This document shows positions 6,619 through 33,787 of a DNA stretch of 35,064 nucleotides, one piece after another. A program made the position numbers and the translations under genes. How positions within the stretch are numbered: the first letter of the stretch is position 1; each line of letters opens with the position of its first letter. The notes under the pieces are model-generated. The model had not been told where the DNA came from, searched no databases, and was given only the letters and a program-made list of their open reading frames with translations. The DNA comes from Gammaproteobacteria bacterium (GTDB lineage: Bacteria; Pseudomonadota; Gammaproteobacteria; GCA-001735895), in the NCBI GenBank assembly GCA_024763185.1, contig JANTFY010000003.1, forward strand, positions 1 to 35,064, given 5' to 3'.

Positions 6619-6630
6619 GCTCAACCTTTA

Positions 6631-8775
6631 CTAAGCCTGTTTATATTCTTGATCGATATTGGGCAGATCATTCACATCGTGAATAATCGTGCTGTCTACC
6701 ATTTCCACCCCGGGCAGTTTAAAACCGGCCACAGATCGGTGTAGCGCCTTAACCATGTTGGAAAGCTCACCAATCGATTCGGAGGCTTCCGCTGATCCGT
6801 CAGAGGTTTTCAGAGTGATTTTCTGAATTTCATTCATCGATTCGGTAATATCCACACTGTCTTTTGCATGCTTCTGGGTCGCGTTGGAAATCTGCAAAAT
6901 ACGTTGCGCGAGGTTGGTGGATACGGTTTCGATCTTATCCAGCGCGCTACCCGCATCTTCTGCCAGGTTTGCCCCTTCCACCACGTTGGAGGTACTTTGC
7001 TCCATCGAGGAAATGGCTTCGTTGGTATCGGTCTGGATGGTTTTTACCAGTGCCTCGATCTGCTTGGTTGCATCACCGGTTCTTTCCGCCAGTCGCTGAA
7101 CTTCGTCGGCAACCACCGCAAAACCACGGCCGGCTTCACCCGCCATCGACGCCTGTATGGCTGCATTCAATGCCAGAATATTGGTTTGGTCAGAGATCTC
7201 AGTAATCAGGTTTACGATATCGCCGATTTCCTGGGAGCTTTCTCCCAGGCGCTTGATCCGCTTGGAGGTTTCCTGAATCTGTTCTCGAATCGATTCCATA
7301 CCGGATATTGTTTTACGCACTGTCTCTCCACCTTTGTGCGCTATGTTCACTGAGTTTCTGGCTACATCGGCCGAGTCTGAAGCATTCTTCGACACTTTAC
7401 TCATACTTTCCGATATCTCTGTGATCGAAGAGCTGGCTGCAGAAATCTCACGCGCCTGCTGTTCACTGGAACTGGCCAGTTCACGTGTTGTGGACTGGGT
7501 CTTTTTTACAGCCGTGGTTACATGTTCAGCCGTATCATTGATGGTACCCACCAGGTCGCGAAGCGCATCGATGGAGTAGTTCACGGAATCGGCTATAGCA
7601 CCGGTAATATCCTCGGTCACCGTGGTGTGCGTGGATAAATCACCATCAGCGAGGTTGGTCATTTCATCAAGCAAACGCAGGATCGCTCGCTGATTTCGTT
7701 CGTTTTGCTCCTGTGATTCAGTCAGCTGCCTGGCTGAATCCCTTACCAGTTGTACCCCCAGCAATATCAGGAGAATAACCGCAACAATACCAGCCACGTA
7801 TGCCAACAGGTTGAATATCTGCAAGCGGTCGTCGTACTGCGAAATACTGCTTTCAAAATCCCGCGAAGCTTTCAGAAGCTTGGGACTGATCGCCTGAATA
7901 TCACTGGCTGCATCCCTTACCTCAAACAATTGCGGGGAGTTTTGCAGGATCTGGTTTACATTCTTTTTAACCACCGAAAAAAGATCTGCCAGTTGCAGTA
8001 ACTGGCCGACCACTTCATCACCGGTAAACTGGTTAATTCCCAACTCCTTGTTGCCTTCCAGCATGGCAATCAGGATACGTTCAATCAGCGCCGTTTCGCG
8101 ACCAAACTGGTCTGCCGCGGCCATGACCACGTCACCGCCATTCATAATCTGGTTAAGACTGTTTTGCACACTCTGTATCAATGCCAACTGCCTTGAGGCG
8201 GTGGCTATGTCACTTCGGGCCGCCTTGCTTTTTACCAGTATTTTGACCACTTCATCCGAAATAACCAGCAACTCCGGAATCGACTCGTTGATCAGCGTGA
8301 CATACTCGCTTACGGTCTCGATGGATTCACGCGCTTCCAGAATAGTGACGATACCCTGATTGTATTCACTCCAGGCGGATTCGATATTTTCCAGGCCTTC
8401 CTGCAGTTCAAACGGAATGGGTGGCAAATTTTGATCACTGTCACCCGCTTTCAAACGGTTAAGGGTACTGACAAATCGCGCCTGGTATCTTTTCAACTGA
8501 ACAAATGCCGCTGAATTACCGATCGAGGCTTCCAGCGCGAAGGTGGCAATCTGCTGAGAGACAACCTGTTGCTCATTGGCTATGGAGGCATAGGCCTTAC
8601 CATATCGCGCCTGAATCGTTTCGTAATTAAACAGGAACACCATGACCAGAATGGATAAAATGATGCCAAACGAATAAATCAGAATTAATTTATTACCCTT
8701 AGCAGCCGTTCTACCTGACTGCCCACCCGTTTTGCCAGATGAAAACATACCTTTAAATTTATCCAGTAGCGGCAT
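6631..8775 (-). CDS. pilJ: Methyl-accepting chemotaxis protein PilJ
   Basis: Two TM segments flanking a periplasmic domain, a HAMP region (NLADGDLS...[12 protein letters not shown]) and the signalling hairpin [39 protein letters not shown] 8775 follows a G-rich RBS; GTG 8781 is the alternative start. Confidence 0.95.
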
Positions 8776-8806
8776 AGACACCCCCCATTAAAAAATTACT
8801 CATGGT

Positions 8807-9340
8807 TTAAACCACCTTAAGAAATTGCTCATGATTCACCAGTTTTTCGATGCTAAACACGTTCCACTGTGACTGTTCATCATTGAAAACACCATCCAGA
8901 TAAGGCTTAAGCACACCCATCCCGCCAGCATCTGATTGTTGCTTCGACTCCGGCTTAAATCGCCTTAACCCAAACACCTCTTCGACCAGCAACCCGGCCA
9001 CCACGTCATGCCTGTTAATCACCAGGATTCGACGTTGAGATGCTGAATCGATGTAATCCCCATTCAAATACAGGTTCATATCCAGGATCGGCATCAATGT
9101 TCCTCGCACGTTCGCCAGACCTTTAACCCAGGTTTTTACCCCCGGCACCCGGATCGTACCCGGTGGCGGTAATATTTCTGCCACTTCACTCATGGCTGCG
9201 ATCAATTTTTGCCCGTTCAGACGAAAACCGATTCCAACCCAGTCTTCAGCCACCTTGGTGCCACTGGGCAACCCCCTGGCGTTTACACGGCACTGGTGAT
9301 CTATGTCCTGTAGCAGCTCAAATGGCGTGGTAGCGACCAT
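8807..9340 (-). CDS. pilI: CheW-like protein PilI
   Basis: WVGIGFRL...VAEIL...VPGVKTWVKGLANVRGTLMPILD; located between pilH and pilJ. Confidence 0.93.
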   Translation of the reverse strand: MVATTPFELLQDIDHQCRVNARGLPSGTKVAEDWVGIGFRLNGQKLIAAMSEVAEILPPPGTIRVPGVKTWVKGLANVRGTLMPILDMNLYLNGDYIDSASQRRILVINRHDVVAGLLVEEVFGLRRFKPESKQQSDAGGMGVLKPYLDGVFNDEQSQWNVFSIEKLVNHEQFLKVV

Positions 9341-9344
9341 TGAG

Positions 9345-9707
9345 CTAATTTAAGACCTTTTTGATACGGCCGATCAGATCCGCCTCATTGGCCGGTTTTA
9401 CGATGTAATCCTTGGCGCCTTGCCGCATACCCCAGATCTTGTCGGTTTCCTGATCCTTGGTGGTAATGATAATGACCGGAATTTTGGCCGTAACCGGATT
9501 TCGACTTAAATCACGCGTCGCCTGAAAACCGTTTTTGCCCGGCATTACCACATCCATCAAAATACAGTCCGGTTGAATTTCGATCGCTTTTTCGATGCCT
9601 TCTTCGCCATTAGTGGCCACAGACACCTGTATCTGGTTTTTTTCAAGAATGGTTTTGAAGACATGAACCTCGGTGGGAGAATCGTCAATAATTAAAATAT
9701 GAGTCAT
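9345..9707 (-). CDS. pilH: Single-domain response regulator PilH
   Basis: ILIIDDSPTE...ILMDVVMPGKNGFQATR...TKDQETDKIWGMRQGAKDYIVKP, a classic PilH signature. Confidence 0.95.
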   Translation of the reverse strand: MTHILIIDDSPTEVHVFKTILEKNQIQVSVATNGEEGIEKAIEIQPDCILMDVVMPGKNGFQATRDLSRNPVTAKIPVIIITTKDQETDKIWGMRQGAKDYIVKPANEADLIGRIKKVLN

Positions 9708-9740
9708 AACCTTAATCCTCTTAGTAAACTAACCGATGGG

Positions 9741-10160
9741 TTACGCCCCGTTAACATGGGATGTAATCGCACCAATCAGGTCTTCTTTGGAAAAGGGTTT
9801 GGTTAAATACTCTTCCGACCCGACAATACGCCCTCTTGCACGATCAAAAATACTGTCTTTACTCGACAGCATAATGACCGGCGTGGCTTTAAAGGTCTGG
9901 TTATTTTTAATCAGTGCACAGGTCTGATAGCCATCAAGCCTTGGCATCATGATGTCCACAAAGATAATATCCGGATGATGTTCTGTAATTTTAGACAGGG
10001 CTTCAAAGCCATCGGTCGCGGTTACAACATCACAACCCACCTTCTTGAGTAAAGTTTCTGCACTTCTTCGTATTGTTTTACTGTCATCAATCACCATCAC
10101 CTTAACATTTAACTGCAAGGCTTCAGCTGGATTGCCTGACTGTTGAGACTCGTCGCTCAC
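9741..10160 (-). CDS. pilG: Single-domain response regulator PilG
   Basis: KVMVIDDSKTIRRSAETLLKKVGC...FVDIMMPRLDGYQTCALIKNN...RGRIVGSEEYLTKPF; GTG start preceded by GGGGGAG. Confidence 0.96.
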   Translation of the reverse strand: MSDESQQSGNPAEALQLNVKVMVIDDSKTIRRSAETLLKKVGCDVVTATDGFEALSKITEHHPDIIFVDIMMPRLDGYQTCALIKNNQTFKATPVIMLSSKDSIFDRARGRIVGSEEYLTKPFSKEDLIGAITSHVNGA

Positions 10161-18363: not shown

Positions 18364-19521
18364 CTAGTTATCCCTGGGCAGCGTCAATTCATCCGGAAAG
18401 GGTTGCTCATTCAGATTGTGCCGACTGTCACCCCGATGTTGCTCACCACCAAAGTTAATCTTCCATTCCAGGTTAGTGCTCGAATCCGCGTAGGCCAGCG
18501 CGCTTTTGATTGAAATCTTGTCGGCCTTGTATAAATCATACAGCGACTGATCGAAGGTCTGCATGCCCACGGTATCACCTTTCTCCATGATCTCCTTGAT
18601 TTCGTTGAAGTTACCTTCACGTAATAACTCGGCAATGTACGGCGTATTCATCATGATTTCGACGGCACAGGCGAGCTTGCCATCCATCGCCGGCACCAGG
18701 CGCTGGGAGATAACCGCTTTCAGGTTCAACGATAAGTCCATCAACAGCTGTTCACGCATATCAACCGGGAACATGTTCATCATCCGGTCCATGGCCTGGT
18801 TGGAGTTAACCGCATGCAGGGTCGTCAGGCACAAATGCCCGGTATCCGCGTAATTGATCGCCGCCTGCATGGTTTCACGGTCACGCGCCTCACCGATCAT
18901 GATCACTTCGGGTGCCTCACGCAAGGCTTCGCGCAGCGCATTTTCATAAGACAAGGTATCGATACCCACCTCGCGTTGCGAAATGACCGATTTATTATGC
19001 TTGAACACAAATTCAATCGGGTCTTCGATAGTCAGTATATGACCACCTTCGATGCCGTTTCGATGATTGATCATGGAAGCCAGCGTGGTCGATTTACCCG
19101 AACCGGTTGACCCCACCACCAGCACCAGGCCGGTTTTTTCCATGACAATTTTCTTCAAGATCTGCGGCAGCAACAATTGATCAATGGTCGGAATCTCCCA
19201 CTTGATGTAACGGATGACCATGGAAACTTCGGAACGCTGAATAAAGATATTAACCCGGAAGCGCCCGACGCCCACCAGGGTAAAGCCCAGGTTCAATTCG
19301 CGGTTGATTTCAAAATCGGTGACCTGCTCATCAGTCAACAGGCTGTAGGCCAGTTTTTGTACCTGCCCCGACTTGAGGGCATTTTTTGCCATGGGTCCGG
19401 TGCGCCCGTCCAGCTTCATATTGGGCGGCGCGCCGGTGACAAAAAACAGGTCAGAGGCCTGTTTTTCCGCCATTATTTTTAAATATGGCTCCAGAAGTTT
19501 GGTAGTGGGTTCACGACTCAT
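18364..19521 (-). CDS. pilU: Second PilU-like type IV pilus retraction ATPase
   Basis: ASDLF, GRFRVN, Walker A GSTGSGKST, TIEDPIE, IGEARD, TGHLCLTTLH, SLNLKAVISQRL and GMQTFDQ; lacks the PilT AIRNLIRE motif. Confidence 0.87.
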   Translation of the reverse strand: MSREPTTKLLEPYLKIMAEKQASDLFFVTGAPPNMKLDGRTGPMAKNALKSGQVQKLAYSLLTDEQVTDFEINRELNLGFTLVGVGRFRVNIFIQRSEVSMVIRYIKWEIPTIDQLLLPQILKKIVMEKTGLVLVVGSTGSGKSTTLASMINHRNGIEGGHILTIEDPIEFVFKHNKSVISQREVGIDTLSYENALREALREAPEVIMIGEARDRETMQAAINYADTGHLCLTTLHAVNSNQAMDRMMNMFPVDMREQLLMDLSLNLKAVISQRLVPAMDGKLACAVEIMMNTPYIAELLREGNFNEIKEIMEKGDTVGMQTFDQSLYDLYKADKISIKSALAYADSSTNLEWKINFGGEQHRGDSRHNLNEQPFPDELTLPRDN

Positions 19522-19523
19522 GC

Positions 19524-20696
19524 TTATATCATTCCACCTGGTCTATCGTCATCAGCTTCTTCCAGTTCAAAATCATCCCGATGGTCTTCCACCAGCCCCG
19601 TTTTTCGTGCCGTATCGCTTTCCAGCTTGATACGCAGACGAATGTCGTTCACCGAGTCGGCGTTACGCAAGGCATCTTCAAAAGTTATCTGGCGCTCTTC
19701 ATAAAGATTGAATAACGCCTGGTCAAAGGTGATCATGCCTTGTTCGTTGGATTTTGCCATCAATCCTTTCATTTCATGCACCTCGCCCTTGAAAATCATA
19801 TCGGCCATCAGTGGCGTATTGAGCATGATCTCGACCGCGGGAATACGACCCACGCCATCGATACGCGGGATCAGGCGTTGCGACACCAGCCCTTTCAGGT
19901 TCAACGACAAATCCATCAATAACTGCTGTCTTCTTTCCTCGGGGAAAAAGTTGATGATTCGATCCAGCGCCTGGTTGGTGCTATTGGCGTGTAACGTGGT
20001 CAGGCAAAGGTGCCCGGTTTCGGCAAAGGCAATGGCGTGTTCCATTGCTTCACGGTCACGCACCTCACCGATCAAAATAACGTCCGGCGCCTGGCGCAGG
20101 GTGTTTTTCAGCGCGATTTCATAGGTATCGGTATCCACCCCCACCTCACGTTGTGTCACCAGGCAGTTTTTATGTTCATGCACAAATTCAACCGGGTCTT
20201 CGATGGTAATAATATGCCCGTAACTGTGACGATTGCGATAATCCACCATCGACGCCAGCGAGGTTGATTTACCGGAGCCGGTGCCACCCACAAAAATAAC
20301 CAGACCGCGTTTGGTCATGGCTATTTCCTGCAGGGTATTGGGAAGATTCAGCTCTTCAAAGCTTGGGATTTCTGAGTTAATGATACGCAGCACCAGGCCG
20401 GTACTGCCACGCTGTACAAAAGCATTGACACGAAAGCGGGCCACACCCGGCAAGGCAATGGAAAAATTACATTCCTGGTTTTCTTCAAACTCAGACACCT
20501 GTTTGTCATTCATGATCGAACGCGCCAACATCTGGGTATGATTGGGCGCCAGGATCTGTTTAGAAACCGTATTGATCTTGCCATCAATCTTCATTGCCGG
20601 TGGAGATCCGGAGGTAATGAACAAATCCGAGCCATCCTTGCTGACCATCATGCGTAACAGGTCATGCATAAACCCGATCGCTTTATTTCTATCCAT
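19524..20696 (-). CDS. pilU: Type IV pilus retraction ATPase PilU
   Basis: GSDLFIT, GGTGSGKST, ALKNTLRQAPDVILIGEVRD, QALDRIINFFPEERRQQLLMDLSLNL and ALRNADSVNDIRLRIKL. Confidence 0.94.
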   Translation of the reverse strand: MDRNKAIGFMHDLLRMMVSKDGSDLFITSGSPPAMKIDGKINTVSKQILAPNHTQMLARSIMNDKQVSEFEENQECNFSIALPGVARFRVNAFVQRGSTGLVLRIINSEIPSFEELNLPNTLQEIAMTKRGLVIFVGGTGSGKSTSLASMVDYRNRHSYGHIITIEDPVEFVHEHKNCLVTQREVGVDTDTYEIALKNTLRQAPDVILIGEVRDREAMEHAIAFAETGHLCLTTLHANSTNQALDRIINFFPEERRQQLLMDLSLNLKGLVSQRLIPRIDGVGRIPAVEIMLNTPLMADMIFKGEVHEMKGLMAKSNEQGMITFDQALFNLYEERQITFEDALRNADSVNDIRLRIKLESDTARKTGLVEDHRDDFELEEADDDRPGGMI

Positions 20697-20737
20697 TTGT
20701 GCTCCTGTTAGTTACGTTCAAGTTTAAATTCAGGTGA

Positions 20738-21772
20738 TTACAGTGAATCCGGATTGGCCGCCTTACGCTGCGCCTCTTCCTTACTGATCAGCCCCTGCGC
20801 CAGAATCTGTTTGAGGTTCTGGTCCAGTGTCTGCATGCCGACCGATTGACCGGTCTGGATAGCCGAGTACATCTGCGCTACCTTGTCTTCTCGAATCAGG
20901 TTTCTGATCGCCGGGGTACCGATCATGATTTCATGCGCCGCAATTCGACCGCCACCGATTTTTTTCATCAGTGTTTGCGAAATAACCGCCTTCAGTGATT
21001 CCGACAACATCGAACGCACCATGGCCTTTTCCGCCGCCGGAAACACATCCACGATACGGTCGATGGTTTTGGCCGCCGAACTGGTGTGCAGGGTACCAAA
21101 AACCAGGTGACCGGTTTCGGCCGCAGACAACGCCAGGCGAATGGTTTCCAGGTCACGCATCTCGCCCACCAGAATGGTATCCGGATCTTCACGCAGTGCC
21201 GAGCGCAGGGCCTCGTTAAATCCCAGCGTATCTCGATGTACCTCGCGCTGGTTGACCAGGCATTTTTTACTTTGATGCACAAATTCGATGGGATCTTCCA
21301 CCGTTAGAATATGGCCATATTCGGAATCGTTTTTATAATCGATCATGCCCGCCAAGGTGGTGGACTTACCCGAACCGGTGGGGCCGGTAACCAGCACGAT
21401 ACCGCGCGGGTACTCTGATATTTCCTTGAATATAGCGGGTGCGCCCAGGTCTTCCAGAGTCAGGATCTTGGATGGAATCGTTCTGAATACGCCGCCGGCT
21501 CCGCGGTTATGGTTGAAGGCATTCACACGAAAACGGGCCAGGCCGGGGATCTCGAAAGAAAAGTCGGTTTCCAGGAACTCTTCAAAATCCTTGCGCTGCT
21601 TGTCACTCATGATGTCATACAGCATGTCATGTACCTGTTTATGGTCCATTTCCGGCACATTGATTCGACGTATATCGCCATCCACCCGGATCATGGGTGG
21701 CAACCCGGCTGATAAATGCAAATCGGAGGCACCCTGTTTCACGCCAAAGGCCAATAGTTGAGCTATATCCAT
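20738..21772 (-). CDS. pilT: Type IV pilus retraction ATPase PilT
   Basis: MDIAQLLAF..ASDLHLSAGLPPMIRVDGD, GPTGSGKSTT and the AIRNLIRE motif; 344 aa. Confidence 0.98.
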   Translation of the reverse strand: MDIAQLLAFGVKQGASDLHLSAGLPPMIRVDGDIRRINVPEMDHKQVHDMLYDIMSDKQRKDFEEFLETDFSFEIPGLARFRVNAFNHNRGAGGVFRTIPSKILTLEDLGAPAIFKEISEYPRGIVLVTGPTGSGKSTTLAGMIDYKNDSEYGHILTVEDPIEFVHQSKKCLVNQREVHRDTLGFNEALRSALREDPDTILVGEMRDLETIRLALSAAETGHLVFGTLHTSSAAKTIDRIVDVFPAAEKAMVRSMLSESLKAVISQTLMKKIGGGRIAAHEIMIGTPAIRNLIREDKVAQMYSAIQTGQSVGMQTLDQNLKQILAQGLISKEEAQRKAANPDSL

Positions 21773-25433: not shown

Positions 25434-26354
25434 ATGACCTTAACCGAACTCAAATACATCGTTGCCGTTGCCCAAAAAAAACATTTCGGACAAGCCGCAC
25501 AAGCCTGTTTTGTCAGCCAGCCTACCTTGAGTATCGCCATCAAAAAACTGGAAGAAGAACTCGATATCAAGCTGTTCGAGCGCAGCTCGAAAAATGAGAT
25601 TCGCATTACCGATATCGGCCAGCAGGTCATTGAACAGGCGCAGAAGGTATTACGTGAAACCCAGGTCATCAACGAGATTTCCCAACAGGGCAAGGACCCT
25701 TTATCGGGCACCTTTCGCCTCGGTGCCATTTACACCATTGGCCCCTACCTGTTGCCCAACCTGATTCCGCGCATCAATGAATCCGCACCCAATCTGACGT
25801 TGATTATCGAAGAGGATTTTACCGCCAACCTGTCAACCAAGTTAAAACAGGGTGAGCTCGATGCCATTATCATCTCCTACCCTTATGATGAAGCGGGAAT
25901 CGAAACGGCACCATTGTATGAAGAACCCTTCGTTGTGGCTTTACACTCAAGGCACGAATGGCTACAAAAAGAACAGATTTCCGTCAACGAACTGGTCGGC
26001 CAGGACCTGATGCTGCTCGGCGCCGGGCACTGTTTCAGGGACCAGGTGATACAGGCTTGCCCACAGTGCATGGAAAGCAATAACGAACTGACCCGCACCC
26101 TCGAAGGCAGCTCACTGGAAACCATCCGTCACATGGTTGCAGCCGGAACCGGCATTACCGTACTACCCTGTACCAGCATGATGCACAGCCAGCAAAATCA
26201 TGATCTGATCAGCATCAAGTCCTTTGCCAACCCCCAACCCAGTCGCACCGTTGCATTGGCCTGGCGCAAGCATTATCCGCGCAAGGAGGCGATCCAACAG
26301 ATTATCGACAATATCCAACAGTGCCAGTTACCGGGTACACAATCCATTCGTTAA
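25434..26354 (+). CDS. oxyR: Hydrogen peroxide-sensing LysR regulator OxyR
   Basis: LysR HTH (HFGQAAQACFVSQPTLS), GAIYTIGPYLLP, redox motif GHCFRDQVIQAC (C-x8-C) and GSSLETIRHMVA. Confidence 0.95.
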   Translation: MTLTELKYIVAVAQKKHFGQAAQACFVSQPTLSIAIKKLEEELDIKLFERSSKNEIRITDIGQQVIEQAQKVLRETQVINEISQQGKDPLSGTFRLGAIYTIGPYLLPNLIPRINESAPNLTLIIEEDFTANLSTKLKQGELDAIIISYPYDEAGIETAPLYEEPFVVALHSRHEWLQKEQISVNELVGQDLMLLGAGHCFRDQVIQACPQCMESNNELTRTLEGSSLETIRHMVAAGTGITVLPCTSMMHSQQNHDLISIKSFANPQPSRTVALAWRKHYPRKEAIQQIIDNIQQCQLPGTQSIR

Positions 26355-26360
26355 AGGACA

Positions 26361-29012
26361 TCAAACACCGACACAGTCGACATAGATAGTTACACCTGGA
26401 TAATTAATTACCCCACTTCCATCTCCATTGGAGCCACCAGAAACTTCACATATATGTCCCTGTCCGGTATCACTGCCTTCCACAACCTCAACAGCATAAG
26501 AAGAGCCGTTATCCAACTGAGATGAAAAGGTATAGGTACCATTATCATCAATGAAAAGGTCATCACCACCATTATTGGTCAATGTGAAAGTACCGATGGC
26601 GCCACTTACTTCAACGACAATACCAAAGGGACCTAGCGCATGATTCCCGTAACGGGCAATAAAAATATCCTCGCCGGAGGATTCATTCAGATAACGAAGA
26701 CCATGCCCAGCAACAAAGATGTTATCCACTGGGTCAAGAACAATACTTTCAGCCTGGTCTGTTGCAACAGTACCATCTTGTATGGTCCACTGCAGAACTC
26801 CATCATTATCTAGTTTACTTAAGAAATAGTCGTACTCACCCAAGTTACTATTTCCATAGAGTGCGCCAGCAGTTGCTCCAGTTACATAGATATTGGAAGC
26901 CGAGTCCAGGTCAATACCCCTGATCCATTCACGTTCGACCGTGCCCATTTGGGTAATCCACTGCAAATCCCCGTCACTATCCAGCTTAGCGATAAACACA
27001 TCTATTTCACCATTATTGGTTCCATTCCAGTTACCCCAGGTATCACCTCCTATGTAAATATTATTATCACTATCCAGAACGATACTATAGCCATTATCAT
27101 ACGAGTCAGTTCCTAACTGCTCTGTCCAGAGCCTGCTACCCGTTGAAGTATATTTTGTAACAATCACATCGGTGAAGCCAAGGCTGACATTTCCATCCAA
27201 ATCCCCACCTGTATAACCTACCACAACCACATTATCATCTGAGTCCACAGCTATTTCATAACCGTATTCATAATTATTAGTTCCCGGTTGCTGGGTCCAT
27301 TGATGGTCACCATCCGGGTTATATTTGGAGATAAAGATATCCCGCCCAGCATGACTACTGTTTCCATTTAAGCCATTTTCAGTCATGCCTGTCATGTAAA
27401 CGTTGCCTTCACTGTCCAGGGCCACATCATATCCTATGTCGGATTCAATACCGCCGTTTACGACCGTCCATTGATGATCACCATCCAGATTATATTTACT
27501 CAATAGAATATCCCGCCCCCCACTATTAACATACCCATCCAGGTCACCGAAGGTATCCCCGGTTATATATAAATAACCTCTTACATTATCCAAGACCAAA
27601 CCACGAATTTCATCATCCTCTTCACTTCCATTTAAAACGGTCCAGATAAAATCTCCATCTGACGAATATTTACTAATAAAGAGATCCCCCCTTCCATTAT
27701 TGGATTGACCATCAAGATCTCCTGCCGCTTTTCCAACCACAAACAAATCACCTGACGCATCTAGTGCTATATCGTTGGCATAATCATGAAGTACTCCTTC
27801 CATAGTTCCATTCTGGACGAACCAAGCCAAGGTGGGTGGACCTCCGGGATTTGCAGTATTTGCCGTTATGCTGACAGAATCAGGATTACTATCCAGTTCA
27901 CCATCTGTGACGGTTAAATTGACAACATAATTACCCTCTATATCAGCAATAAATGTGGGCGTTTGAGAATTCGCATTTATTAGCGTTGTAGAACTACCAT
28001 CGGGCACAGACTGAAATACCCAGGTAAAACTCAATTCATCATCATTGGGGTCAGAACTTGATTCACCATTTAACAAAACCGTTGACCCTACATCCACACT
28101 TTGATCATTTCCTGCATTTGCAACCGGCCTGCCATTGCTGTTTACTGCAGCAGTAATAATGACCTGGTCCTGGTCGCTATAGGTGCCATCATTCACCTCC
28201 AATTGCAGCAAGTATTCTCCCTCCACATCAGCCATAAATGAAGTCTGTACCTGTGCCATGTTTTCTAACACTGCTGTACTGCCATCTGGCCTGCTGACAA
28301 AACCCCATAGGTATGTCAGCTGATCGCCATTTACATCGATACTTGCCGAACCATCAACCGTCACCAGGCGTGGAGCCAGAACACTCTGATCATCACCAGC
28401 ATTAGCATTGGGTGGTAGATTCATACCATCCGGCAGCCCACCACCATACTCAATAATTGACTCATGAAGTTGATCCCTTGCATCTTCAACACTAACAAGG
28501 ACTCTGTTCAAAGCATTCTGTGTATCCTCACCAAAAGATGCACTGGAAAAATCTGTTTGTGCTGGCAATAAATTAACTAAATTATCATCCAGAGTGATAA
28601 CTCCATTATCTGGGTCACCATCACCATCTACAGTTTGCAATAAACGCGCAACATTAATGGCCGCATCTTCATCACCGGGAAACAAGGTATAGGGGGAAAT
28701 GGGACCTTGCTGTACCCGTACATTACCCAGATTAACCGCCCCCAGAGAAAATCGCACCATATCGCCAACATTACACGTATATTCCCCAAGCTGATTGGTT
28801 ATACCTGTATGACCTGATGAACAGGTATATCTCAATCCCTGAACTGGGTCATCGATAAACTGACCGGTGATAGTCTGGGCACTCGAGCCACCACTGCCTC
28901 CACCACAGGACATCAACAATACAGATAAGACGGTAGCCAAAAAATAACCCGCCACCTTCGGCAACGAAACGCCCCCATGAAGAGGCTTGATACGGTCTGT
29001 TATTTGTTTCAT
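26361..29012 (-). CDS. Large acidic lipoprotein: N-terminal domain, 2 PKD-like domains, SBBP beta-propeller and C-terminal beta-rich domain
   Basis: Lipobox-like VLLMS-C followed by GGGSGGSS; two PxANAGxDQSV...xGSxSxD...LTxxW units; about 7 repeats of xxIALDxxGNxYxTG.T.G.L.G..N.G..DxFxxKY...G...W. Start uncertain (ATG 29012 or TTG 29039). Confidence 0.85.
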   Translation of the reverse strand: MKQITDRIKPLHGGVSLPKVAGYFLATVLSVLLMSCGGGSGGSSAQTITGQFIDDPVQGLRYTCSSGHTGITNQLGEYTCNVGDMVRFSLGAVNLGNVRVQQGPISPYTLFPGDEDAAINVARLLQTVDGDGDPDNGVITLDDNLVNLLPAQTDFSSASFGEDTQNALNRVLVSVEDARDQLHESIIEYGGGLPDGMNLPPNANAGDDQSVLAPRLVTVDGSASIDVNGDQLTYLWGFVSRPDGSTAVLENMAQVQTSFMADVEGEYLLQLEVNDGTYSDQDQVIITAAVNSNGRPVANAGNDQSVDVGSTVLLNGESSSDPNDDELSFTWVFQSVPDGSSTTLINANSQTPTFIADIEGNYVVNLTVTDGELDSNPDSVSITANTANPGGPPTLAWFVQNGTMEGVLHDYANDIALDASGDLFVVGKAAGDLDGQSNNGRGDLFISKYSSDGDFIWTVLNGSEEDDEIRGLVLDNVRGYLYITGDTFGDLDGYVNSGGRDILLSKYNLDGDHQWTVVNGGIESDIGYDVALDSEGNVYMTGMTENGLNGNSSHAGRDIFISKYNPDGDHQWTQQPGTNNYEYGYEIAVDSDDNVVVVGYTGGDLDGNVSLGFTDVIVTKYTSTGSRLWTEQLGTDSYDNGYSIVLDSDNNIYIGGDTWGNWNGTNNGEIDVFIAKLDSDGDLQWITQMGTVEREWIRGIDLDSASNIYVTGATAGALYGNSNLGEYDYFLSKLDNDGVLQWTIQDGTVATDQAESIVLDPVDNIFVAGHGLRYLNESSGEDIFIARYGNHALGPFGIVVEVSGAIGTFTLTNNGGDDLFIDDNGTYTFSSQLDNGSSYAVEVVEGSDTGQGHICEVSGGSNGDGSGVINYPGVTIYVDCVGV
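26645..27830 (-). repeat. About seven ~57-aa SBBP-type propeller repeats
   Basis: Repeats are visible in the translation. At DNA level, 27297-27347 and 27468-27518 (171-bp period) match at 40/51 nt by manual alignment. Confidence 0.8.
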
Positions 29013-29031
29013 TTCCTTTAAACCCACCCTG

Positions 29032-31512
29032 TTAAACAAATTTTCGGTTAAATAATGATTTTCTCCTCAACCCGAAGACCCACACTAGAAATGCACTCAG
29101 CACTTCAACTGCAAAAGCCCCGCTGGAACCACCGTCTGAATCATTATCCGGATTACCGCCAACATCTACCGTATTGGCCACCACCCCCTCGCCACTCACG
29201 TGAAGGGTAATCGGATTCTCGTCACCATCATTTGATGGAATATCCAGACTGTCGTTAAAATCGGCCACGGATGTAGGTGAGAACCTGATGGTTATTGCAC
29301 AGGTTTCACCCTGGCTTAAGGTTTGAGCTGAGCAGGTATCATTGTCCAGCTGGAAAGGGTCTGCCAGGGGATTTGACACCGCAATCTGCCCAAGAACCAG
29401 GTCAGCGCTTCCGTTATTGGTGATATCGACCTGTTTTGTTGCAGTGCTGTTTTCAGCCACTCTACCAAATGGAAGCTGGAGGTCATCCACCGGGTCAACA
29501 GCATCCGTGACGGCAATATCCGCTACGGGTTGTGCCACGCCTGTGCCGGTTACTGTAACAATCACCGATGGCTCATCGGCATCATTCGATGGAATATCCA
29601 GGTTGTCATTAAAAATACCTGCGGATGTGGGTTCAAATTGAACTTCAAAGGTACAGCTGGAAGCTGGTATTACAGTCTGCCCACTGCAATGATCATTGAT
29701 CAGGCTAAACGGCAGAGCAACCACATCCACACTGCCGATATTGCCAATAACCAGGTCGGCATCTCCAACATTTGAAATGGTTACGGTTTGTACGCCACTG
29801 GTGGCCAGGGTTCTGGCCCCAAAAGCAATCTGCAAATCATCTGGCGGAGCGATTGAGTCCACTACCGTGATATCCGGAACAGGAACACCAATACCATGAC
29901 CTTGTGCACTGACGGTCACCACCGATTCATCCGCATCATTGGAAGGAATTTCAAAACCATCCGTGAAAGCACCGGTTGAAGGCGGCGTAAAGCGGATGGT
30001 TAAGGCACAGTTAGAGAGTGGTGCCAGGGTTTGACCAGAACAACTATCCGCTTGAATGACAAAGTCATTGTTAAGCAGATTCTGATCTACCACCAAGCCG
30101 AGAATAAGATCCGCATCACCGCTGTTGGTCACGGTTATGCTGTGATCTGCAAAAGATAACTCGGTAACGTCACCAAATAGAAGTTGAAGATCATCAATGG
30201 GTGCAACAGAATCTGTTACAACAATTTCAGGCGAAGTTACCCCTGCACCCTGAGCGTAAATATAAGCAGCACCCAGGTCGGTAATAAAACCCGTTTGAGC
30301 GTCATAATAATCTTCTCGCCAGGCTCCAATAATGGCATGTTCATCACCCAGGGCAACCGAGCCCCCATAGATATCCATTCCTGAACCATCTGACGCCGTC
30401 AGATGCTGGATTTCAGACCAATCTCCTGCCAAGTCAATCTGGTAGAGATAGGCTGAACCGGCCAATGACCCATTATCGTCGTAGGTGCTATACGAACCGA
30501 TCAGGACCTGATCTCCCTGTATGGAAATCGACTCACCAAAACCATCGTAGGGGAAATTGACCGTACCATCAAAATCGGACGCATTTAATATCTGTTCTTC
30601 TGTCCAGGTGGCGCCATTCCTATTAAACACATAAACCGAGCTGGCAACATAATTGCTCAATGCCACATGAACATAGCTGTTGTTGGATACCATGGCCGTA
30701 TCACCGCTGACCGCAACGGCATGACCAAACCAGTCGTCCACGGCATTATCGGATGCCAACAACTTCTGCTGTTGAGCCCAGCTATCTTGTGAGCGAACGA
30801 AAATATAGGCACTGCCTCGTCGGGCATGCTTATCTTTCGCACCTACCACGACAGTGTCCCCATCAATGGCGACGGCATTGCCAAAGTTGTCGCCGTAGTC
30901 AGAGTCATCGGGGCGAATTTTCTGTTGTTCACTCCAGGTTGTACCACTACGTACAAAGACATAAGCTGCACCGGGCGGATTAGTTTCATGAACACCGTCG
31001 CCCAGTTCCTGAGCGTATTCAGCCCCGATCACCACCGTATCGCCATCTATAGCCACGGCATGTCCAAACTTGTCATCATCCGAGCCATCGGAAGCGATCA
31101 GTTTTGCCTGTTCCGTCCACACAGTCCCGCTGCGAACAAACACATAGGCTGCGCCTGTATTACTTCCAGATACAGAAGCACCTTCAGCCCCGACAACAAT
31201 CGTGTCACCATCCATAGCGACTGCACGCCCAAAAAAATCATTCGATGCACCATCTGATGCCGTCAGTTTTTGTTGCTCCGCCCAATCACCCGATACAGCG
31301 TCACGTACCAAGACATAGACCGCACCCGTTGAACCAGAATTGGAACCGATAGCAGCCGTATCTCCACTTATCGAAACTGCACGTCCAAACTGATCATAAT
31401 CGGCTCCATCCGAAGCAAAAATTTTAACTTCGCCCGTCAGGTCAGCCGATACTGTGAATGGAATTAAAAGAACTAAGAAAGAAAAAAACCGAATAACCTG
31501 ACCAAAGACCAT
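29032..31512 (-). CDS. Secreted surface protein: FG-GAP beta-propeller, three Ig-like (choice-of-anchor D/ASH-like) domains and a GlyGly-CTERM-like tail
   Basis: GGAG RBS before ATG 31512; signal peptide MVFGQVIRFFSFLVLLIPFTVSA; repeats KLxASDG...DxFGxAVAIDGDTxVVGA...GAAYVF; three PxIxVxD..P.DDLQ..FG...DxCSxQT......C.....F.P...IPSND.DE units; C-terminus DGGSSGA-hydrophobic-RRK. Confidence 0.88.
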   Translation of the reverse strand: MVFGQVIRFFSFLVLLIPFTVSADLTGEVKIFASDGADYDQFGRAVSISGDTAAIGSNSGSTGAVYVLVRDAVSGDWAEQQKLTASDGASNDFFGRAVAMDGDTIVVGAEGASVSGSNTGAAYVFVRSGTVWTEQAKLIASDGSDDDKFGHAVAIDGDTVVIGAEYAQELGDGVHETNPPGAAYVFVRSGTTWSEQQKIRPDDSDYGDNFGNAVAIDGDTVVVGAKDKHARRGSAYIFVRSQDSWAQQQKLLASDNAVDDWFGHAVAVSGDTAMVSNNSYVHVALSNYVASSVYVFNRNGATWTEEQILNASDFDGTVNFPYDGFGESISIQGDQVLIGSYSTYDDNGSLAGSAYLYQIDLAGDWSEIQHLTASDGSGMDIYGGSVALGDEHAIIGAWREDYYDAQTGFITDLGAAYIYAQGAGVTSPEIVVTDSVAPIDDLQLLFGDVTELSFADHSITVTNSGDADLILGLVVDQNLLNNDFVIQADSCSGQTLAPLSNCALTIRFTPPSTGAFTDGFEIPSNDADESVVTVSAQGHGIGVPVPDITVVDSIAPPDDLQIAFGARTLATSGVQTVTISNVGDADLVIGNIGSVDVVALPFSLINDHCSGQTVIPASSCTFEVQFEPTSAGIFNDNLDIPSNDADEPSVIVTVTGTGVAQPVADIAVTDAVDPVDDLQLPFGRVAENSTATKQVDITNNGSADLVLGQIAVSNPLADPFQLDNDTCSAQTLSQGETCAITIRFSPTSVADFNDSLDIPSNDGDENPITLHVSGEGVVANTVDVGGNPDNDSDGGSSGAFAVEVLSAFLVWVFGLRRKSLFNRKFV
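30255..31440 (-). repeat. Seven FG-GAP (FG-GAP_2-type) repeats
   Basis: FGRAVSI, FGRAVAM, FGHAVAI, FGNAVAI, FGHAVAV, FGESISI and YGGSVAL cores, each followed by a GAAY/GAVY/GSAY/SSVY strand. Confidence 0.85.
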
Positions 31513-31555
31513 GACAACTTCTCCATTTGCGGCGAGGGACACTACGGAGAAGTTA

Positions 31556-31583
31556 AGTCACATAAAGTCACAAAATAGTCACA
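31556..31583 (-). promoter_or_regulatory. Three direct heptamer repeats (TGTGACT on the coding strand); candidate SARP operator
   Basis: AGTCACA at 31556-31562, 31566-31572 and 31577-31583 (periods 10 and 11 bp), just upstream of a possible -10 (TAGTGT, about 31539-31544) of the surface-protein operon. Confidence 0.65.
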
Positions 31584-31644
31584 GTTGCAAAATACAACTC
31601 TTGGTTATGACTTAAATCAAAAGTTGTGATTAAAATCGGAAAAA

Positions 31645-32490
31645 CTATTTGGGAGCCTGGGCACACAGTTCGCAGAATCCTCCGCAAACTTCGGGTTCTG
31701 CCTTAATGGTTTCATAAAGATGGAGGGTTTTTTGCGATGGCTTGATGCCAAAAGTCTGCTTTAGCATTTGATGACAACGTTCAAACAGGGCCAGCGCTTC
31801 AGAACGGTTGCCCTGGGCACTGTGACAACGCATCAGACCCCGACAATACTCTTCAGACAGCGGGTCGAATTCGCGTGCTTTTTCATACAGCGTGATCACT
31901 TTTCTACAGTCACTGCCGTGATGACGATAATATGCGATCAGCAGCTTGATAATACGCATAAAACGCGAGCGTAAACGTTCTCTGAGCGGTAACATCCAGC
32001 CAACAGCGTTTTCCTTTTCCAGGAACAAACCCCGATTAAGGGCAAACAGCTCTTCAATCAGTTGCTGTAATTTGACTTTTTCATCCTGGCTGTCGTTTTC
32101 CAAATATCGACCCAACTTGTTTAACAGCGCTTCCAACACCCAGGTGTCCACCCAGCAATACTGATCATTCAGGCTTAAGTGACCTTGTTGCACATGGAGT
32201 GCATCCGGTCCAATCATTTTCCTTAGACGTGACAGGGTGGTTGTGTATGCACTATGAGCCTGGTCACCTTCAGAATCTGGCCACAAGGATTCGGTGATCA
32301 GGAACTCGCTAACATTTTTGCCACCGAAGGCGATTAATACCTGAAGCAATTGAACCGGTTTATTTTGGGCTTTGCCCCTGAAGTGAATTTTTGCCCCATT
32401 CAGGCGTACGGAAAAATGCCCCAAAGTAGAAGTTTGCAGAGGATAAGATCCATAAGATTGATCGTAACGAGTTGTTCTTTCGGGACCCAT
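31645..32490 (-). CDS. Stand-alone SARP/AfsR-family transcriptional regulator (winged HTH + BTAD)
   Basis: TLGHFSV...LLQVLIA..G..VS...ESLWPDS.......TTLSRLRKMIG (OmpR-type wHTH), then CWVD, RGLFL...W....RERLR, DPLSEEYCRGLMRCH..GNRSEAL..FERC...LKQTFGIKPS..T..LY (BTAD). Confidence 0.9.
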   Translation of the reverse strand: MGPERTTRYDQSYGSYPLQTSTLGHFSVRLNGAKIHFRGKAQNKPVQLLQVLIAFGGKNVSEFLITESLWPDSEGDQAHSAYTTTLSRLRKMIGPDALHVQQGHLSLNDQYCWVDTWVLEALLNKLGRYLENDSQDEKVKLQQLIEELFALNRGLFLEKENAVGWMLPLRERLRSRFMRIIKLLIAYYRHHGSDCRKVITLYEKAREFDPLSEEYCRGLMRCHSAQGNRSEALALFERCHQMLKQTFGIKPSQKTLHLYETIKAEPEVCGGFCELCAQAPK

Positions 32491-32642
32491 TTTCTAAAAC
32501 CTTGCCTTAATACCGGCACTTACCACTTTTGTTATTTTGAACGGGAATATAACTATTTTTCAATTCCAATGTATTGATGGAAGTCACCCTTGGCACCATT
32601 TAGCTTTATAATTCAGCCTTGTTAAAACAACCGATAAAGCCA

Positions 32643-32954
32643 ATGGTAAAACATGATATCACCCGGCAAGAGTTGGAACGCGGGAAAATAAACAGCGAGA
32701 CCGCGCGCATCGCCTGGAAGGAACTGCAACGCTATTTTGCCGGGGGTTACACCCTGCTGGTCAGCGACGAACTCGACTTGATCGAGGTGGCCTACCAGAT
32801 GCAGCAGGACAATGCGTCACAGATCGAACAGTGGATGCAAAACACACAGATTCAGCAGGTCAGCAATGAACAGGCACGTGAGTGGTTTAACAACGATGCC
32901 GAACTATGGGCCTGTGTGATCAAGCCCTGGGTGTTGATTCAAGCGGTGGATTAA
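32643..32954 (+). CDS. DUF2288 family protein
   Basis: KINSETARIAWKELQRYFAGG...V...LDLIEVA...D....I..W...LWACVIKPWVLIQ; ATG 32643 chosen (TTG 32619 possible). Confidence 0.85.
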   Translation: MVKHDITRQELERGKINSETARIAWKELQRYFAGGYTLLVSDELDLIEVAYQMQQDNASQIEQWMQNTQIQQVSNEQAREWFNNDAELWACVIKPWVLIQAVD

Positions 32955-33787
32955 TCGTCCAGTTGCTCCAGAATATTCACCAGCGCGTAGCCATCCAGCA
33001 CATTCAACCAGTGGGTAAAGCCCTGAATCAGGCGTGTTGATTTTTTACCGATGGCCGGGACATTGCCCATGTCCTGACTGTAGCCCGACACGATCGGGTC
33101 ACCCAGCGCCCCGGTTACCGTTGAACGCACAACGGAGAAGTATTCGATATCCGGATGCTGACGCGTATTCAGCCAATGCAACAGGCGCCCGGGTATGGCC
33201 GGCACGATATCGTTCAACAGCCCCTGCGAACGACGCAGCATGTCGTAGGTTTCACCACCCAGCATTTCTTTCAGAATACGTACCGGTAAGGGGTCATCCA
33301 ATTCATCCAGGCCTCGATAGGCCAGTGCTGTACCCAGGTGTGGACTGGCAATTGTCACCAGCGCCTGGACATTGGGAGGGCAGCCGTTGCGCACCAGGGC
33401 CATGCGTGCTACCACGCCGCCGAGGGAGTGCCCGGCAATAATCACTTTTTCAGAAGGGTAATGATCCACAATCCAGCGTATGGCAGCGGTCACCACGTTG
33501 GCCTGAATAATCAGGGGGGCCTCAGAATTTACCTGTAAATTGATCACCTTGTTTTCTTCCTGGTAACCCGGTAACGGTATCGGAATCAGCCCGGCCGGTG
33601 CTCCCAACAGGATACCGGCCCGCTTCCAGCCAAACTGTTGCAAAACGGGCACCACACCGGATTGCTCCCAGGAAAAAATGTTACCCTGATAGCCATGCAC
33701 CAACAGCAGTACATCGGCCCTGGCCGTGCCTGTCAGCATCAGCCACGAAAATAGCGCGGCAGCAATCAGTTTGTTAACAGCTTTCAT
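32951..33787 (-). CDS. Secreted alpha/beta hydrolase (lipase/esterase-like)
   Basis: Signal peptide ending ARA, oxyanion LVHG, nucleophile elbow GHSLGG, TIASPHLGT, candidate Asp (GDPIV) and His (FTH). Confidence 0.87.
   Translation of the reverse strand: MKAVNKLIAAALFSWLMLTGTARADVLLLVHGYQGNIFSWEQSGVVPVLQQFGWKRAGILLGAPAGLIPIPLPGYQEENKVINLQVNSEAPLIIQANVVTAAIRWIVDHYPSEKVIIAGHSLGGVVARMALVRNGCPPNVQALVTIASPHLGTALAYRGLDELDDPLPVRILKEMLGGETYDMLRRSQGLLNDIVPAIPGRLLHWLNTRQHPDIEYFSVVRSTVTGALGDPIVSGYSQDMGNVPAIGKKSTRLIQGFTHWLNVLDGYALVNILEQLDD

Follow-up and report, generated by a model that had tools for sequence, protein, structure and literature searches.

Can a SARP-type transcriptional activator, together with a short stretch of repeated DNA, form the dedicated control of a set of exported proteins in a gammaproteobacterium? 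We consider this question for a locus in a 35,064-nucleotide stretch of DNA, here called the window, which is the whole of contig JANTFY010000003.1 in a metagenome-assembled gammaproteobacterial genome (GCA_024763185.1; 2.47 Mb in 323 contigs, 79% complete); sequencing runs that contain this DNA carry the label hydrothermal vent metagenome. Positions 26361-32490 of the window are occupied by three co-oriented minus-strand open reading frames (ORFs), encoding a regulator, an FG-GAP protein and a PKD/SBBP lipoprotein, which have an oxyR-like gene on one side and a DUF2288 gene on the other, as an earlier note made from the letters of the DNA had described. That note had proposed a self-contained, switchable adhesin or surface-coat cassette under the control of its own SARP. 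To our knowledge, SARPs have been studied almost entirely as activators of antibiotic pathways in actinomycetes. The text of a survey of such regulators voices doubt that proteobacterial hits are typical SARPs (PMC7040171).

We conclude that the locus is probably a cassette in which a sensor-less SARP would bind TGTGACT boxes and activate the promoter of a two-gene operon for exported propeller proteins. The features on which this reading turns are the following:

31645..32490, minus strand: 281-residue "small" SARP-type activator (winged helix-turn-helix plus BTAD; Pfam BTAD E = 4.3e-17, AlphaFold/Foldseek, tree)
31556..31583, minus strand: three direct TGTGACT heptamers, a putative SARP box (tandem-array and pattern scans, footprint in relatives)
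31539..31544, minus strand: predicted -10-like hexamer TAGTGT, 11 nt past the third heptamer
29032..31512, minus strand: 826-residue exported acidic FG-GAP/Ig protein (Pfam, NCBIfam, translation)
26361..29012, minus strand: 883-residue acidic lipoprotein with a lipobox, an unnamed 160-residue head, two PKD domains, a 7-blade SBBP propeller and a C-terminal beta-rich domain

A predicted SARP fold followed by a candidate SARP box

We found that residues 114-262 of the regulator match the BTAD domain (PF03704) at 63.3 bits, compared to a cut-off of 22.1. The OmpR-type winged helix N-terminal to this domain is weak by sequence and clear by fold. By sequence alone, the regulator matches AfsR (8hvr_I) weakly, over residues 47-104 (E = 6e-4). 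The AlphaFold model, built from a 20-sequence alignment with a mean pLDDT of 89.9, returns the SARP protomers of AfsR, taken from two transcription initiation complexes, as its top Foldseek matches in the PDB (8k60_J and 8hvr_I; E = 1e-10, 257-263 columns, TM 0.63-0.71). EmbR comes next, such that AfsR and EmbR together give matches over 256-276 columns (E = 1e-10 to 7e-8, TM 0.60-0.71), and the first match after these two proteins has an E of 0.02. Moreover, all 16 invariant columns of the alignment are kept in the regulator, which is itself one of the 20 rows. By its predicted structure, the regulator is a SARP-domain protein with the SARP fold, and the earlier description of it as a SARP-type protein with a winged helix and BTAD stands.

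The spacer between the regulator gene and the FG-GAP gene had been described as repeat-rich, and its heptamers turn out to be a SARP-type box that is conserved in relatives. The three TGTGACT copies (31583-77, 31572-66 and 31562-56) are identical, are spaced by 11 and 10 nt, and form the sole tandem array within 26000-33000. Within the window the two-box pattern is found a single time, compared to 0.03 occurrences expected from shuffles, and no other intergenic match exists in the assembled genome; the remaining matches have one mismatch and fall inside long ORFs. One-mismatch boxes on contigs C114 and C140 were taken as chance matches, since they lie inside long ORFs and a reversed-pattern control gave 1 hit. 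As described, SARP sites are direct heptamer repeats separated by 4 bp, with a periodicity of 11 or 22 bp and the 3' repeat near the -10 element (PMC7040171, PMC10936776), and the AfsR box is 22 bp long, with two 11-bp repeats that overlap a poor -35 element (PMC10936776). The spacer likewise presents direct heptamers at 11-nt periodicity beside a -10-like element. The start listed for the FG-GAP gene (GTG 31542) falls within this hexamer; the true start is likely ATG 31512, preceded at 8 nt by GGAG.

Using a pattern search on one genome per species, we obtained at least 561 loci with a gene for a relative of the regulator, and analysed the best 80 of these. In L021, L023-L031 and L052, TGTGAC[CT] or CGTAACC occurs twice at 11-nt spacing after the regulator gene (YGTRACY-N4-YGTRACY), and in most of these loci TACTGT, TACGTT, TAATTT or TACGGT is found 10 nt past the second heptamer. 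The two-box pattern lies within 900 nt downstream of 15 of 78 regulators and has 24 matches in all 2.2 Mb of loci, counting both strands. An FG-GAP homologue is encoded directly downstream of the regulator in 8 of the 80 loci (phmmer E = 2.8e-207 to 2.2e-27), and all eight loci belong to the 17-row clade that contains the window regulator in a tree of 77 SARP domains (SH-aLRT 99). Eleven loci of this clade have enough downstream DNA to be read: eight encode an FG-GAP protein, one a PKD lipoprotein (G013) and two something else. Control of the cassette by its own SARP, as the earlier note had proposed, is supported in silico by the SARP match, by the boxes and -10-like hexamer conserved upstream of FG-GAP orthologues, and by the acquired nature of the insert, described below.

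We propose that two or three regulator protomers would bind side by side on the TGTGACT direct repeats, by analogy to AfsR on the afs box. The heptamers, one helical turn apart, would overlap the -35 region of a promoter with TAGTGT as its -10-like element, and the bound protomers would recruit RNA polymerase. This promoter would drive a two-gene operon, in which the FG-GAP protein comes first and the PKD/SBBP lipoprotein second, and the hydrophobic C-terminal tail of the FG-GAP protein would either hold it in place or serve for its sorting. Output would probably be set by the amount of regulator, and perhaps by its C-terminal CxxC, rather than by a ligand. We infer DNA binding and activation, operon structure, cell location and an adhesive role alike.

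Two inverted repeats in the spacer could bear on how the cargo genes are read:

31594..31627, minus strand: imperfect 13-nt inverted repeat I1 (85% complementary), directly past the regulator stop codon
31516..31554, minus strand: perfect 9-nt inverted repeat I3, AACTTCTCC...GGAGAAGTT, which brackets the -10 hexamer and covers the ribosome binding site

From its position, I1 may be the terminator hairpin of the regulator gene, and it belongs to the predicted fold of the spacer RNA. That fold pairs the ribosome binding site (z = -3.33; 0 of 200 shuffles fold as well). A read-through RNA from the regulator gene would, in this model, fold with the ribosome binding site paired; a transcript starting past the -10-like hexamer would lack the 5' arm of I3. 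We made no use of a terminator-like hairpin in the 5' end of the lipoprotein gene (28986-28948), as the scan that gave it was no richer than shuffles.

The cassette at its insertion site

The insert is bounded as follows:

25434..26354, plus strand: gene for an OxyR-like LysR regulator (left flank), core genome, outside the cassette
32491..32618, minus strand: upstream region of the regulator gene and right edge of the insert, with a sigma-70-like site from 32563 to 32534
32619..32954, plus strand: DUF2288 gene (right flank; E = 4.9e-31), core genome, outside the cassette

For the left-flank gene, OxyR is the top NCBIfam model (264 bits, under the cut-off of 329). An empty oxyR-DUF2288 site, the comparison that the earlier note had suggested, was found in 9 of the 11 same-genus genomes fetched, in which the two flank genes are adjacent with a gap of only 3-90 nt. 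The cassette has a GC content of 46.1%, compared to 50.2% in the remainder of the contig, and GC at third codon positions (GC3) is 0.36-0.48 in its three genes, compared to 0.59-0.63 in five flanking core genes. Since the flank genes are adjacent in most of these genomes and the insert is poor in GC3, we conclude from the sequence comparison that 26355-32618 was gained by horizontal transfer, as a cassette placed between the OxyR-like and DUF2288 genes. A search of 60 other genomes of the taxonomic family gave no FG-GAP orthologue at E <= 1e-30, one partial hit excepted. Two further samples of the study gave contigs that cross the whole cassette and its two junctions, with a few substitutions but without indels; thus, the short regulator is not an assembly artefact.

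The oxyR-DUF2288 junction itself looks like a variable spot in genomes of the genus. One same-genus genome carries a different 5-kb insert there (G011, L110:4900-10090), encoding an ECF sigma factor and a 1101-residue Ser/Thr kinase-TPR protein, and in one the OxyR-like gene does not lie within 10 kb. A second other insert at this junction, in G007 (L107:1-10000), has a C39-peptidase ABC exporter with its HlyD partner adjoining DUF2288. We found no integrase or transposase in the cassette by ORF list and Pfam scan, saw no target-site duplications by eye at the edges of the insert, and obtained no family in an Rfam scan of 26000-33000. The sigma-70-like site upstream of the regulator has 9 of 12 consensus matches and is weak, the scan total being no higher than that of shuffles; a pattern scan of 32491-32618 found no TGTGACY box in this upstream region.

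Elsewhere, the window has ordinary core content: a Chp/Pil-type chemosensory cluster at 280-10160 on the minus strand (a 2114-residue ChpA-like Hpt/kinase/CheW/receiver protein, a PilJ-type MCP, CheW and two receivers) and PilT/PilU-type ATPases at 18364-21772.

The regulator lacks the sensor part of its relatives

Most relatives among the best 80 are about 1,070-1,140 residues long and have the SARP domain at the very C-terminus. The N-terminal 400 residues of these long relatives match the MalT NTPase model (E = 1.3e-36), with weaker matches to AAA_16, TPR and MalT-TPR, and the complete members of the 17-row clade are long. The short and mid-length rows of this clade comprise G013 (a frameshifted gene), L029 (a broken ORF) and G006 (a 749-residue form). 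We rejected the short L028 row and the mid-length L029 row of the tree as natural short forms, since each is a fragment of a longer gene that is frameshifted or broken. Genuine stand-alone SARPs of 282-339 residues are found in other clades, some of them beside dnaE or ppc, with boxes and cargo behind them. One such locus (L093:8724-10753) has two tandem stand-alone small SARPs (280 and 294 residues) after ppc, then a small ORF and a VPLPA-CTERM protein. Among homologues of the regulator at about 40% identity are receiver-SARP forms, and a metagenome scan with the regulator gave 8 loci of at most 38% identity, none closer than the genome collection. On these comparisons, the regulator is a sensor-less derivative of a MalT-type STAND-TPR-SARP family.

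What would the loss of the sensor part mean for activity? Experiments on truncated AfsR, as reported, indicate that its NOD and TPR domains inhibit activation until ATP binds (PMC10936776). Since the STAND/TPR part, inhibitory in AfsR, is lost here, a constitutively competent activator is to be expected, and the results with truncated AfsR together with the natural stand-alone forms argue that a SARP domain can be active alone. We consider it doubtful that the cassette is "switchable", as had been suggested: the STAND/TPR sensor kept by the regulator's nearest genomic relatives is gone. The remaining modulators of the regulator could be its own promoter and a C-terminal CxxC (FCELC), which follows BTAD in the last 12 codons (31645-31680) and occurs in 11 of 15 proteins of the window regulator's clade, compared to 1 of 64 other family members. 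This tail may be a redox or metal input that has outlasted the loss of the sensor domains.

We also asked what the relatives have downstream, comparing 43 downstream proteins from 35 loci to Pfam, and 24 plus two more to NCBIfam. Of the 79 loci in which a regulator was called, 27 have cargo recognisable as exported or surface-type. Besides the 8 FG-GAP proteins and the 1 PKD/cadherin-like lipoprotein, this cargo comprises TPS/ShlB (1), a lactonase-type propeller (1), RHS (1), an NHL/SBBP/VWA protein with CFI-box-CTERM (1), an NHL/YDG giant protein (1), a propeller with SdrD_B (1), DUF7948 with DUF11 (2), DUF1302 (2) and proteins with PEP-CTERM/VPLPA-CTERM-type tails (8, several at or just under cut-offs). 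In seven loci the downstream cargo has no family match, and in some others the neighbours are unrelated (RadC, aminotransferase, IS66, BadF/BcrA, HlyD-GAF, response regulators, a MalT-like fragment). Thus, unrelated neighbours, which the earlier note would have read against a system, do not mark the close clade and are part of the picture in the distant family. Two loci (L029:7800-8900 and L030:750-1700) have many GTGGGAG/TCCCACA repeats and a minus-strand ORF of 172-176 residues between regulator and box. This ORF may encode a REP-associated tyrosine transposase, which it resembles.

A small open reading frame behind the boxes

A conserved ORF of about 55-95 residues accompanies the regulator in 39 of the 80 loci, and lies downstream on the same strand in 36 of these 39. 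Its consensus is M-E-x-Y-I-V-R-I-Y-R-R ... G-x-V-E ... F ... E-L-x-x-I-L, and examples are:

L023:10490-10678, small ORF
L026:11003-11215, small ORF
L064:10951-11151, small ORF

A 7-mer repeated at 11-nt spacing is found no more than 220 nt upstream of 36 of the 39 small ORFs, with cores that include TGTGACC, TGTAACC, TGTAAGY and CGTACC; from the 41 hits that made up this upstream set, 2 were dropped for want of the anchor motif, and L020 and L028 are the same place. The family is large, with 2,719 clusters at 50% identity (E <= 1e-3), or 985 at E <= 1e-10, and its members, where named by the source, are called "hypothetical protein". We found no match in Pfam for four members and none in NCBIfam for three. 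The model of the small protein has three strands and a helix (beta-beta-beta-alpha; pLDDT 76.9), and gave no usable match to the PDB by Foldseek (best E = 1.0). In one locus (L090:1403-1945) the small-ORF domain is fused to PilZ in a 180-residue protein (Pfam PilZ E = 6e-6), and this fusion hints that the small protein is connected to c-di-GMP signalling.

We advance a wider reading with more reserve than the cassette itself, as a possibility that falls just short of an even chance: the window would hold a minimal mobile derivative of a widespread, undescribed module, composed of a STAND/TPR-SARP, a two-heptamer box, an ORF of about 65 residues in first place and variable sorted surface cargo, which would act as a general surface switch across Proteobacteria, Nitrospirota and other phyla. 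Under that reading, and just as tentatively, the cargo of the module would be PEP-CTERM/VPLPA-CTERM and CFI-box proteins and FG-GAP, NHL or SBBP propellers.

The two cargo proteins

The FG-GAP protein begins with a Sec-type signal peptide, as read from the translation, and matches FG-GAP_2 (PF14312) in seven stretches (300.8 bits, E = 1.6e-91). Its three HYDIN/VesB-like Ig domains also match choice-of-anchor D (NF012200) at 143.2 bits, compared to a cut-off of 45, and its C-terminus consists of a Gly/Asp-rich linker, GGSSG, a 17-residue hydrophobic stretch and RRK. The lipoprotein ORF is listed from 29039; ATG 29012 sits 19 nt past the stop of the FG-GAP gene. By eye, its lipobox is LLMSC (KVAGYFLATVLSVLLMS-C-GGGSGG), and a same-genus homologue has LLS-C-GGGG. 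Seven blades of the form D-x-[FLIV]-[ILV]-[STA]-[KR]-[YL] are readable in its translation, and the SBBP repeat model (PF06739) scores 109.7 bits against a cut-off of 20.5; the LipL53 equivalog (NF047494) scores 184.7 bits, under its cut-off of 400. On these profile scores, the second cargo protein is an SBBP propeller that falls short of a LipL53 equivalog. Both proteins have a pI of 4.05, and the earlier picture of two large acidic exported propeller proteins with Ig- or PKD-like domains agrees with the profiles. The domain types are what suggest an adhesin or surface-coat role.

Where these proteins would reside is the subject of the most serious alternative, in which the cassette works and its products have neither a surface-coat nor an adhesive role. 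Here, the FG-GAP protein would be a periplasmic protein anchored in the inner membrane and the lipoprotein would face the periplasm, both with binding or enzymatic roles. We consider this rather unlikely, and the arguments center on the FG-GAP tail. Its last 50 residues match neither GlyGly-CTERM (TIGR03501) nor any other NCBIfam sorting model at E <= 10, it is not among the TIGR03501 matches of the genome at E <= 1, and with a home-built profile made from 11 same-genus tails that pass TIGR03501, it scores 1.8 bits, at rank 95 of 5058 ORF tails. The five best FG-GAP orthologues (43-48% identical, collinear over residues 2-790) continue into fn3-like domains and have no hydrophobic tail. Nevertheless, the tail is built like a sorting signal, and by eye it resembles the same-genus tails that pass the GlyGly-CTERM model. 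Rhombosortase (TIGR03902) was not found in the window's genome, an assembly that is 79% complete, but is present above cut-off in 24 of 31 genomes of the family, among them 10 of 13 other same-genus genomes. Furthermore, choice-of-anchor domains are named, in NCBIfam, for their co-occurrence with C-terminal sorting signals, and cargo in the wider family is often of PEP-CTERM type.

The same genome encodes a 1710-residue protein (G000:C110, plus-strand ORF ending at 5244) whose tail scores 21.1 bits with the same-genus GlyGly-CTERM profile. Because of this tail, the organism probably uses GlyGly-CTERM sorting though the rhombosortase gene was not found in the assembly. The FG-GAP tail itself appears to be either a sorting-like signal of unassigned class or a plain membrane anchor. 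Thus, the proposal of two differently anchored proteins holds for the lipobox of the second, and the GlyGly-CTERM anchor assigned to the first was not borne out by either profile.

Is the cassette intact and functional?

Several observations weigh against a working cassette that is controlled as we propose. The winged helix of the regulator stays under the Pfam cut-off by sequence (Trans_reg_C, 18.5 bits against 26.2). The regulator, at 281 residues, is without the MalT-type NTPase and TPR of the long relatives, and the small ORF was not found in the window or, by six-frame search, in the window's genome; both are possible signs of decay. The nearest database homologues of the regulator are 54-55% identical and 288-429 residues long, which leaves the timing and route of the truncation uncertain; because they are so short, N-terminal shortening may be common near the window's lineage. 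The box differs in geometry from that of orthologues: the heptamer is present three times, the two copies closest to the promoter are 10 nt apart where orthologues have 11, and the hexamer follows the last copy after 11 nt, compared to 10 nt. Three of the five SNPs that separate the samples in the regulator gene are non-synonymous, too few to carry weight. To these we add, with regard to surface exposure, the failure to find rhombosortase in an assembly that is 79% complete, together with the lack of a sorting-model match for the FG-GAP tail.

The lipoprotein provides a further point on the same side. Its head domain was found, in a homologue search, on proteins with varied C-terminal parts. 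In 60 family genomes, 23 other loci encode this domain, and the regulator adjoins only one of them, G013. At that same-genus locus, the regulator, a small ORF and a box stand beside a lipoprotein that matches the window's own at 50% identity over its first 300 residues. FG-GAP protein and lipoprotein occur together only in the window. The lipoprotein, judged by these neighbourhoods, is not a conserved part of the regulator module. Thus, the pairing of regulator, heptamers and surface proteins that the earlier note anticipated holds in the close clade for the FG-GAP protein and is not conserved for the lipoprotein.

Could the regulator be a decaying relic of a long STAND-SARP gene, inactive, such that the cargo is expressed constitutively or controlled otherwise and the heptamers are fossils? 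About 800 N-terminal residues are missing relative to the nearest genomic relatives, and a search of the window's genome, of which 79% is assembled, turned up no separate STAND part; the lost small ORF, the irregular box spacing and the non-synonymous SNPs would fit as well. Still, we consider a relic improbable, and clearly more so than a periplasmic location of the products. The regulator ORF is intact, with a high-confidence fold and every invariant column kept (in an alignment that includes it), the heptamer has the same sequence in all three boxes, and both the -10-like hexamer and the ribosome binding site are in place. Another locus, L052, is also without the small ORF and has the box directly followed by an FG-GAP gene, such that boxes and cargo are retained in its absence. 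Moreover, AfsR activity is described as rising once NOD and TPR are removed (PMC10936776), and small stand-alone forms occur naturally in other clades of the family.

It is highly improbable that the TGTGAC repeats are bound by another factor, such as a CRP-family protein, with the SARP gene a mere neighbour: TGTGA is a CRP half-site, and CRP-family genes adjoin two distant family members (L069 and L072), but the repeats are direct rather than inverted, lie one helical turn apart, travel with SARP genes, shift in sequence with the regulator clade (TGTGACC, TGTAACC, CGTAACC, TGTAAGY) and recur as 7-mers at 11-nt spacing upstream of nearly all the small ORFs.

Discussion

We return to the reading we favor, a sensor-less SARP acting on its own box, and compare it to characterised systems. 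The AfsR/afs box/afsS system of Streptomyces coelicolor (PDB 8hvr, 8k60) shares the SARP fold with the window regulator, and relatives of the window regulator also join a SARP domain to a STAND NTPase and TPR repeats. In gene order, afsS follows afsR. The likeness to afsS is by position only, in that the small ORF of the relatives comes first behind the box, after a large SARP gene. At the promoter, AfsR is described as acting on two 11-bp direct repeats over the -35 element, with a weak -10 element a few bp on (PMC10936776), which resembles the arrangement here. In contrast to AfsR, the relatives have the reversed domain order, with the MalT-type STAND and TPR first and the SARP last, the targets are exported propeller or sorted proteins rather than antibiotic pathways, and the window copy has neither STAND/TPR nor the small ORF.

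ActII-ORF4, DnrI and RedD are "small" SARPs of actinomycetes and act as pathway-specific activators. The window regulator is like them in its 281-residue size class, its winged helix plus BTAD, its place beside its putative targets, and heptamers at 11-nt periodicity as described for such regulators (PMC7040171). It differs in that its host is a gammaproteobacterium known from a vent metagenome-assembled genome, its cargo consists of two surface-type proteins, and the protein comes from a family with C-terminal SARP domains, not from the small SARPs of actinobacteria, and carries a clade-specific CxxC tail. As for MalT of E. coli, the likeness lies in the N-terminal 400 residues of the long relatives and their weak MalT-like TPR. 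MalT ends in a LuxR-type helix-turn-helix. The long relatives instead end in a winged helix plus BTAD, and the window protein is without the MalT-like part.

GSU1771 of Geobacter sulfurreducens, the one characterised Gram-negative case found in our literature search, is described as a regulator with a C-terminal SARP region that governs exopolysaccharide, exosortase, biofilm and electron-transfer genes (PMC10599522). By that description, it shares the C-terminal position of the SARP with the long relatives of the window regulator. Unlike these, it has an N-terminal receiver domain and is a global regulator whose deletion raises target expression, and the passages that describe it contain no heptamer box (PMC10599522).

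Searches of the literature on SARP/BTAD with proteobacteria, FG-GAP, Gammaproteobacteria or PEP-CTERM found no paper on the architecture of the window. To that extent the earlier statement that no such system has been described agrees with our searches, but the mechanism would be a textbook SARP design, and GSU1771 has already been characterised (PMC10599522, as described there). What we consider new is the stripped regulator form of the STAND-TPR-SARP proteins, the unnamed small ORF behind the boxes, and the surface-type cargo across the family. The parent family with its small ORF is a more interesting lead than the stripped copy in the window: literature searches found no studies of either the reversed-order family (at least 561 loci) or the small-protein family.

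The locus points to a proteobacterial lineage that combines the SARP fold with conserved SARP-type boxes and whose putative targets are exported surface-type proteins. It would also provide a compact promoter-regulator pair, 130 bp of DNA and a 281-residue protein with no sensor domain. For the biology of vent bacteria and symbionts, it suggests that surface proteins and a dedicated activator may move together into a variable chromosomal spot. If the wider reading is correct, a SARP domain and its box are by themselves enough to be captured as a surface-protein cassette that drives its own expression.

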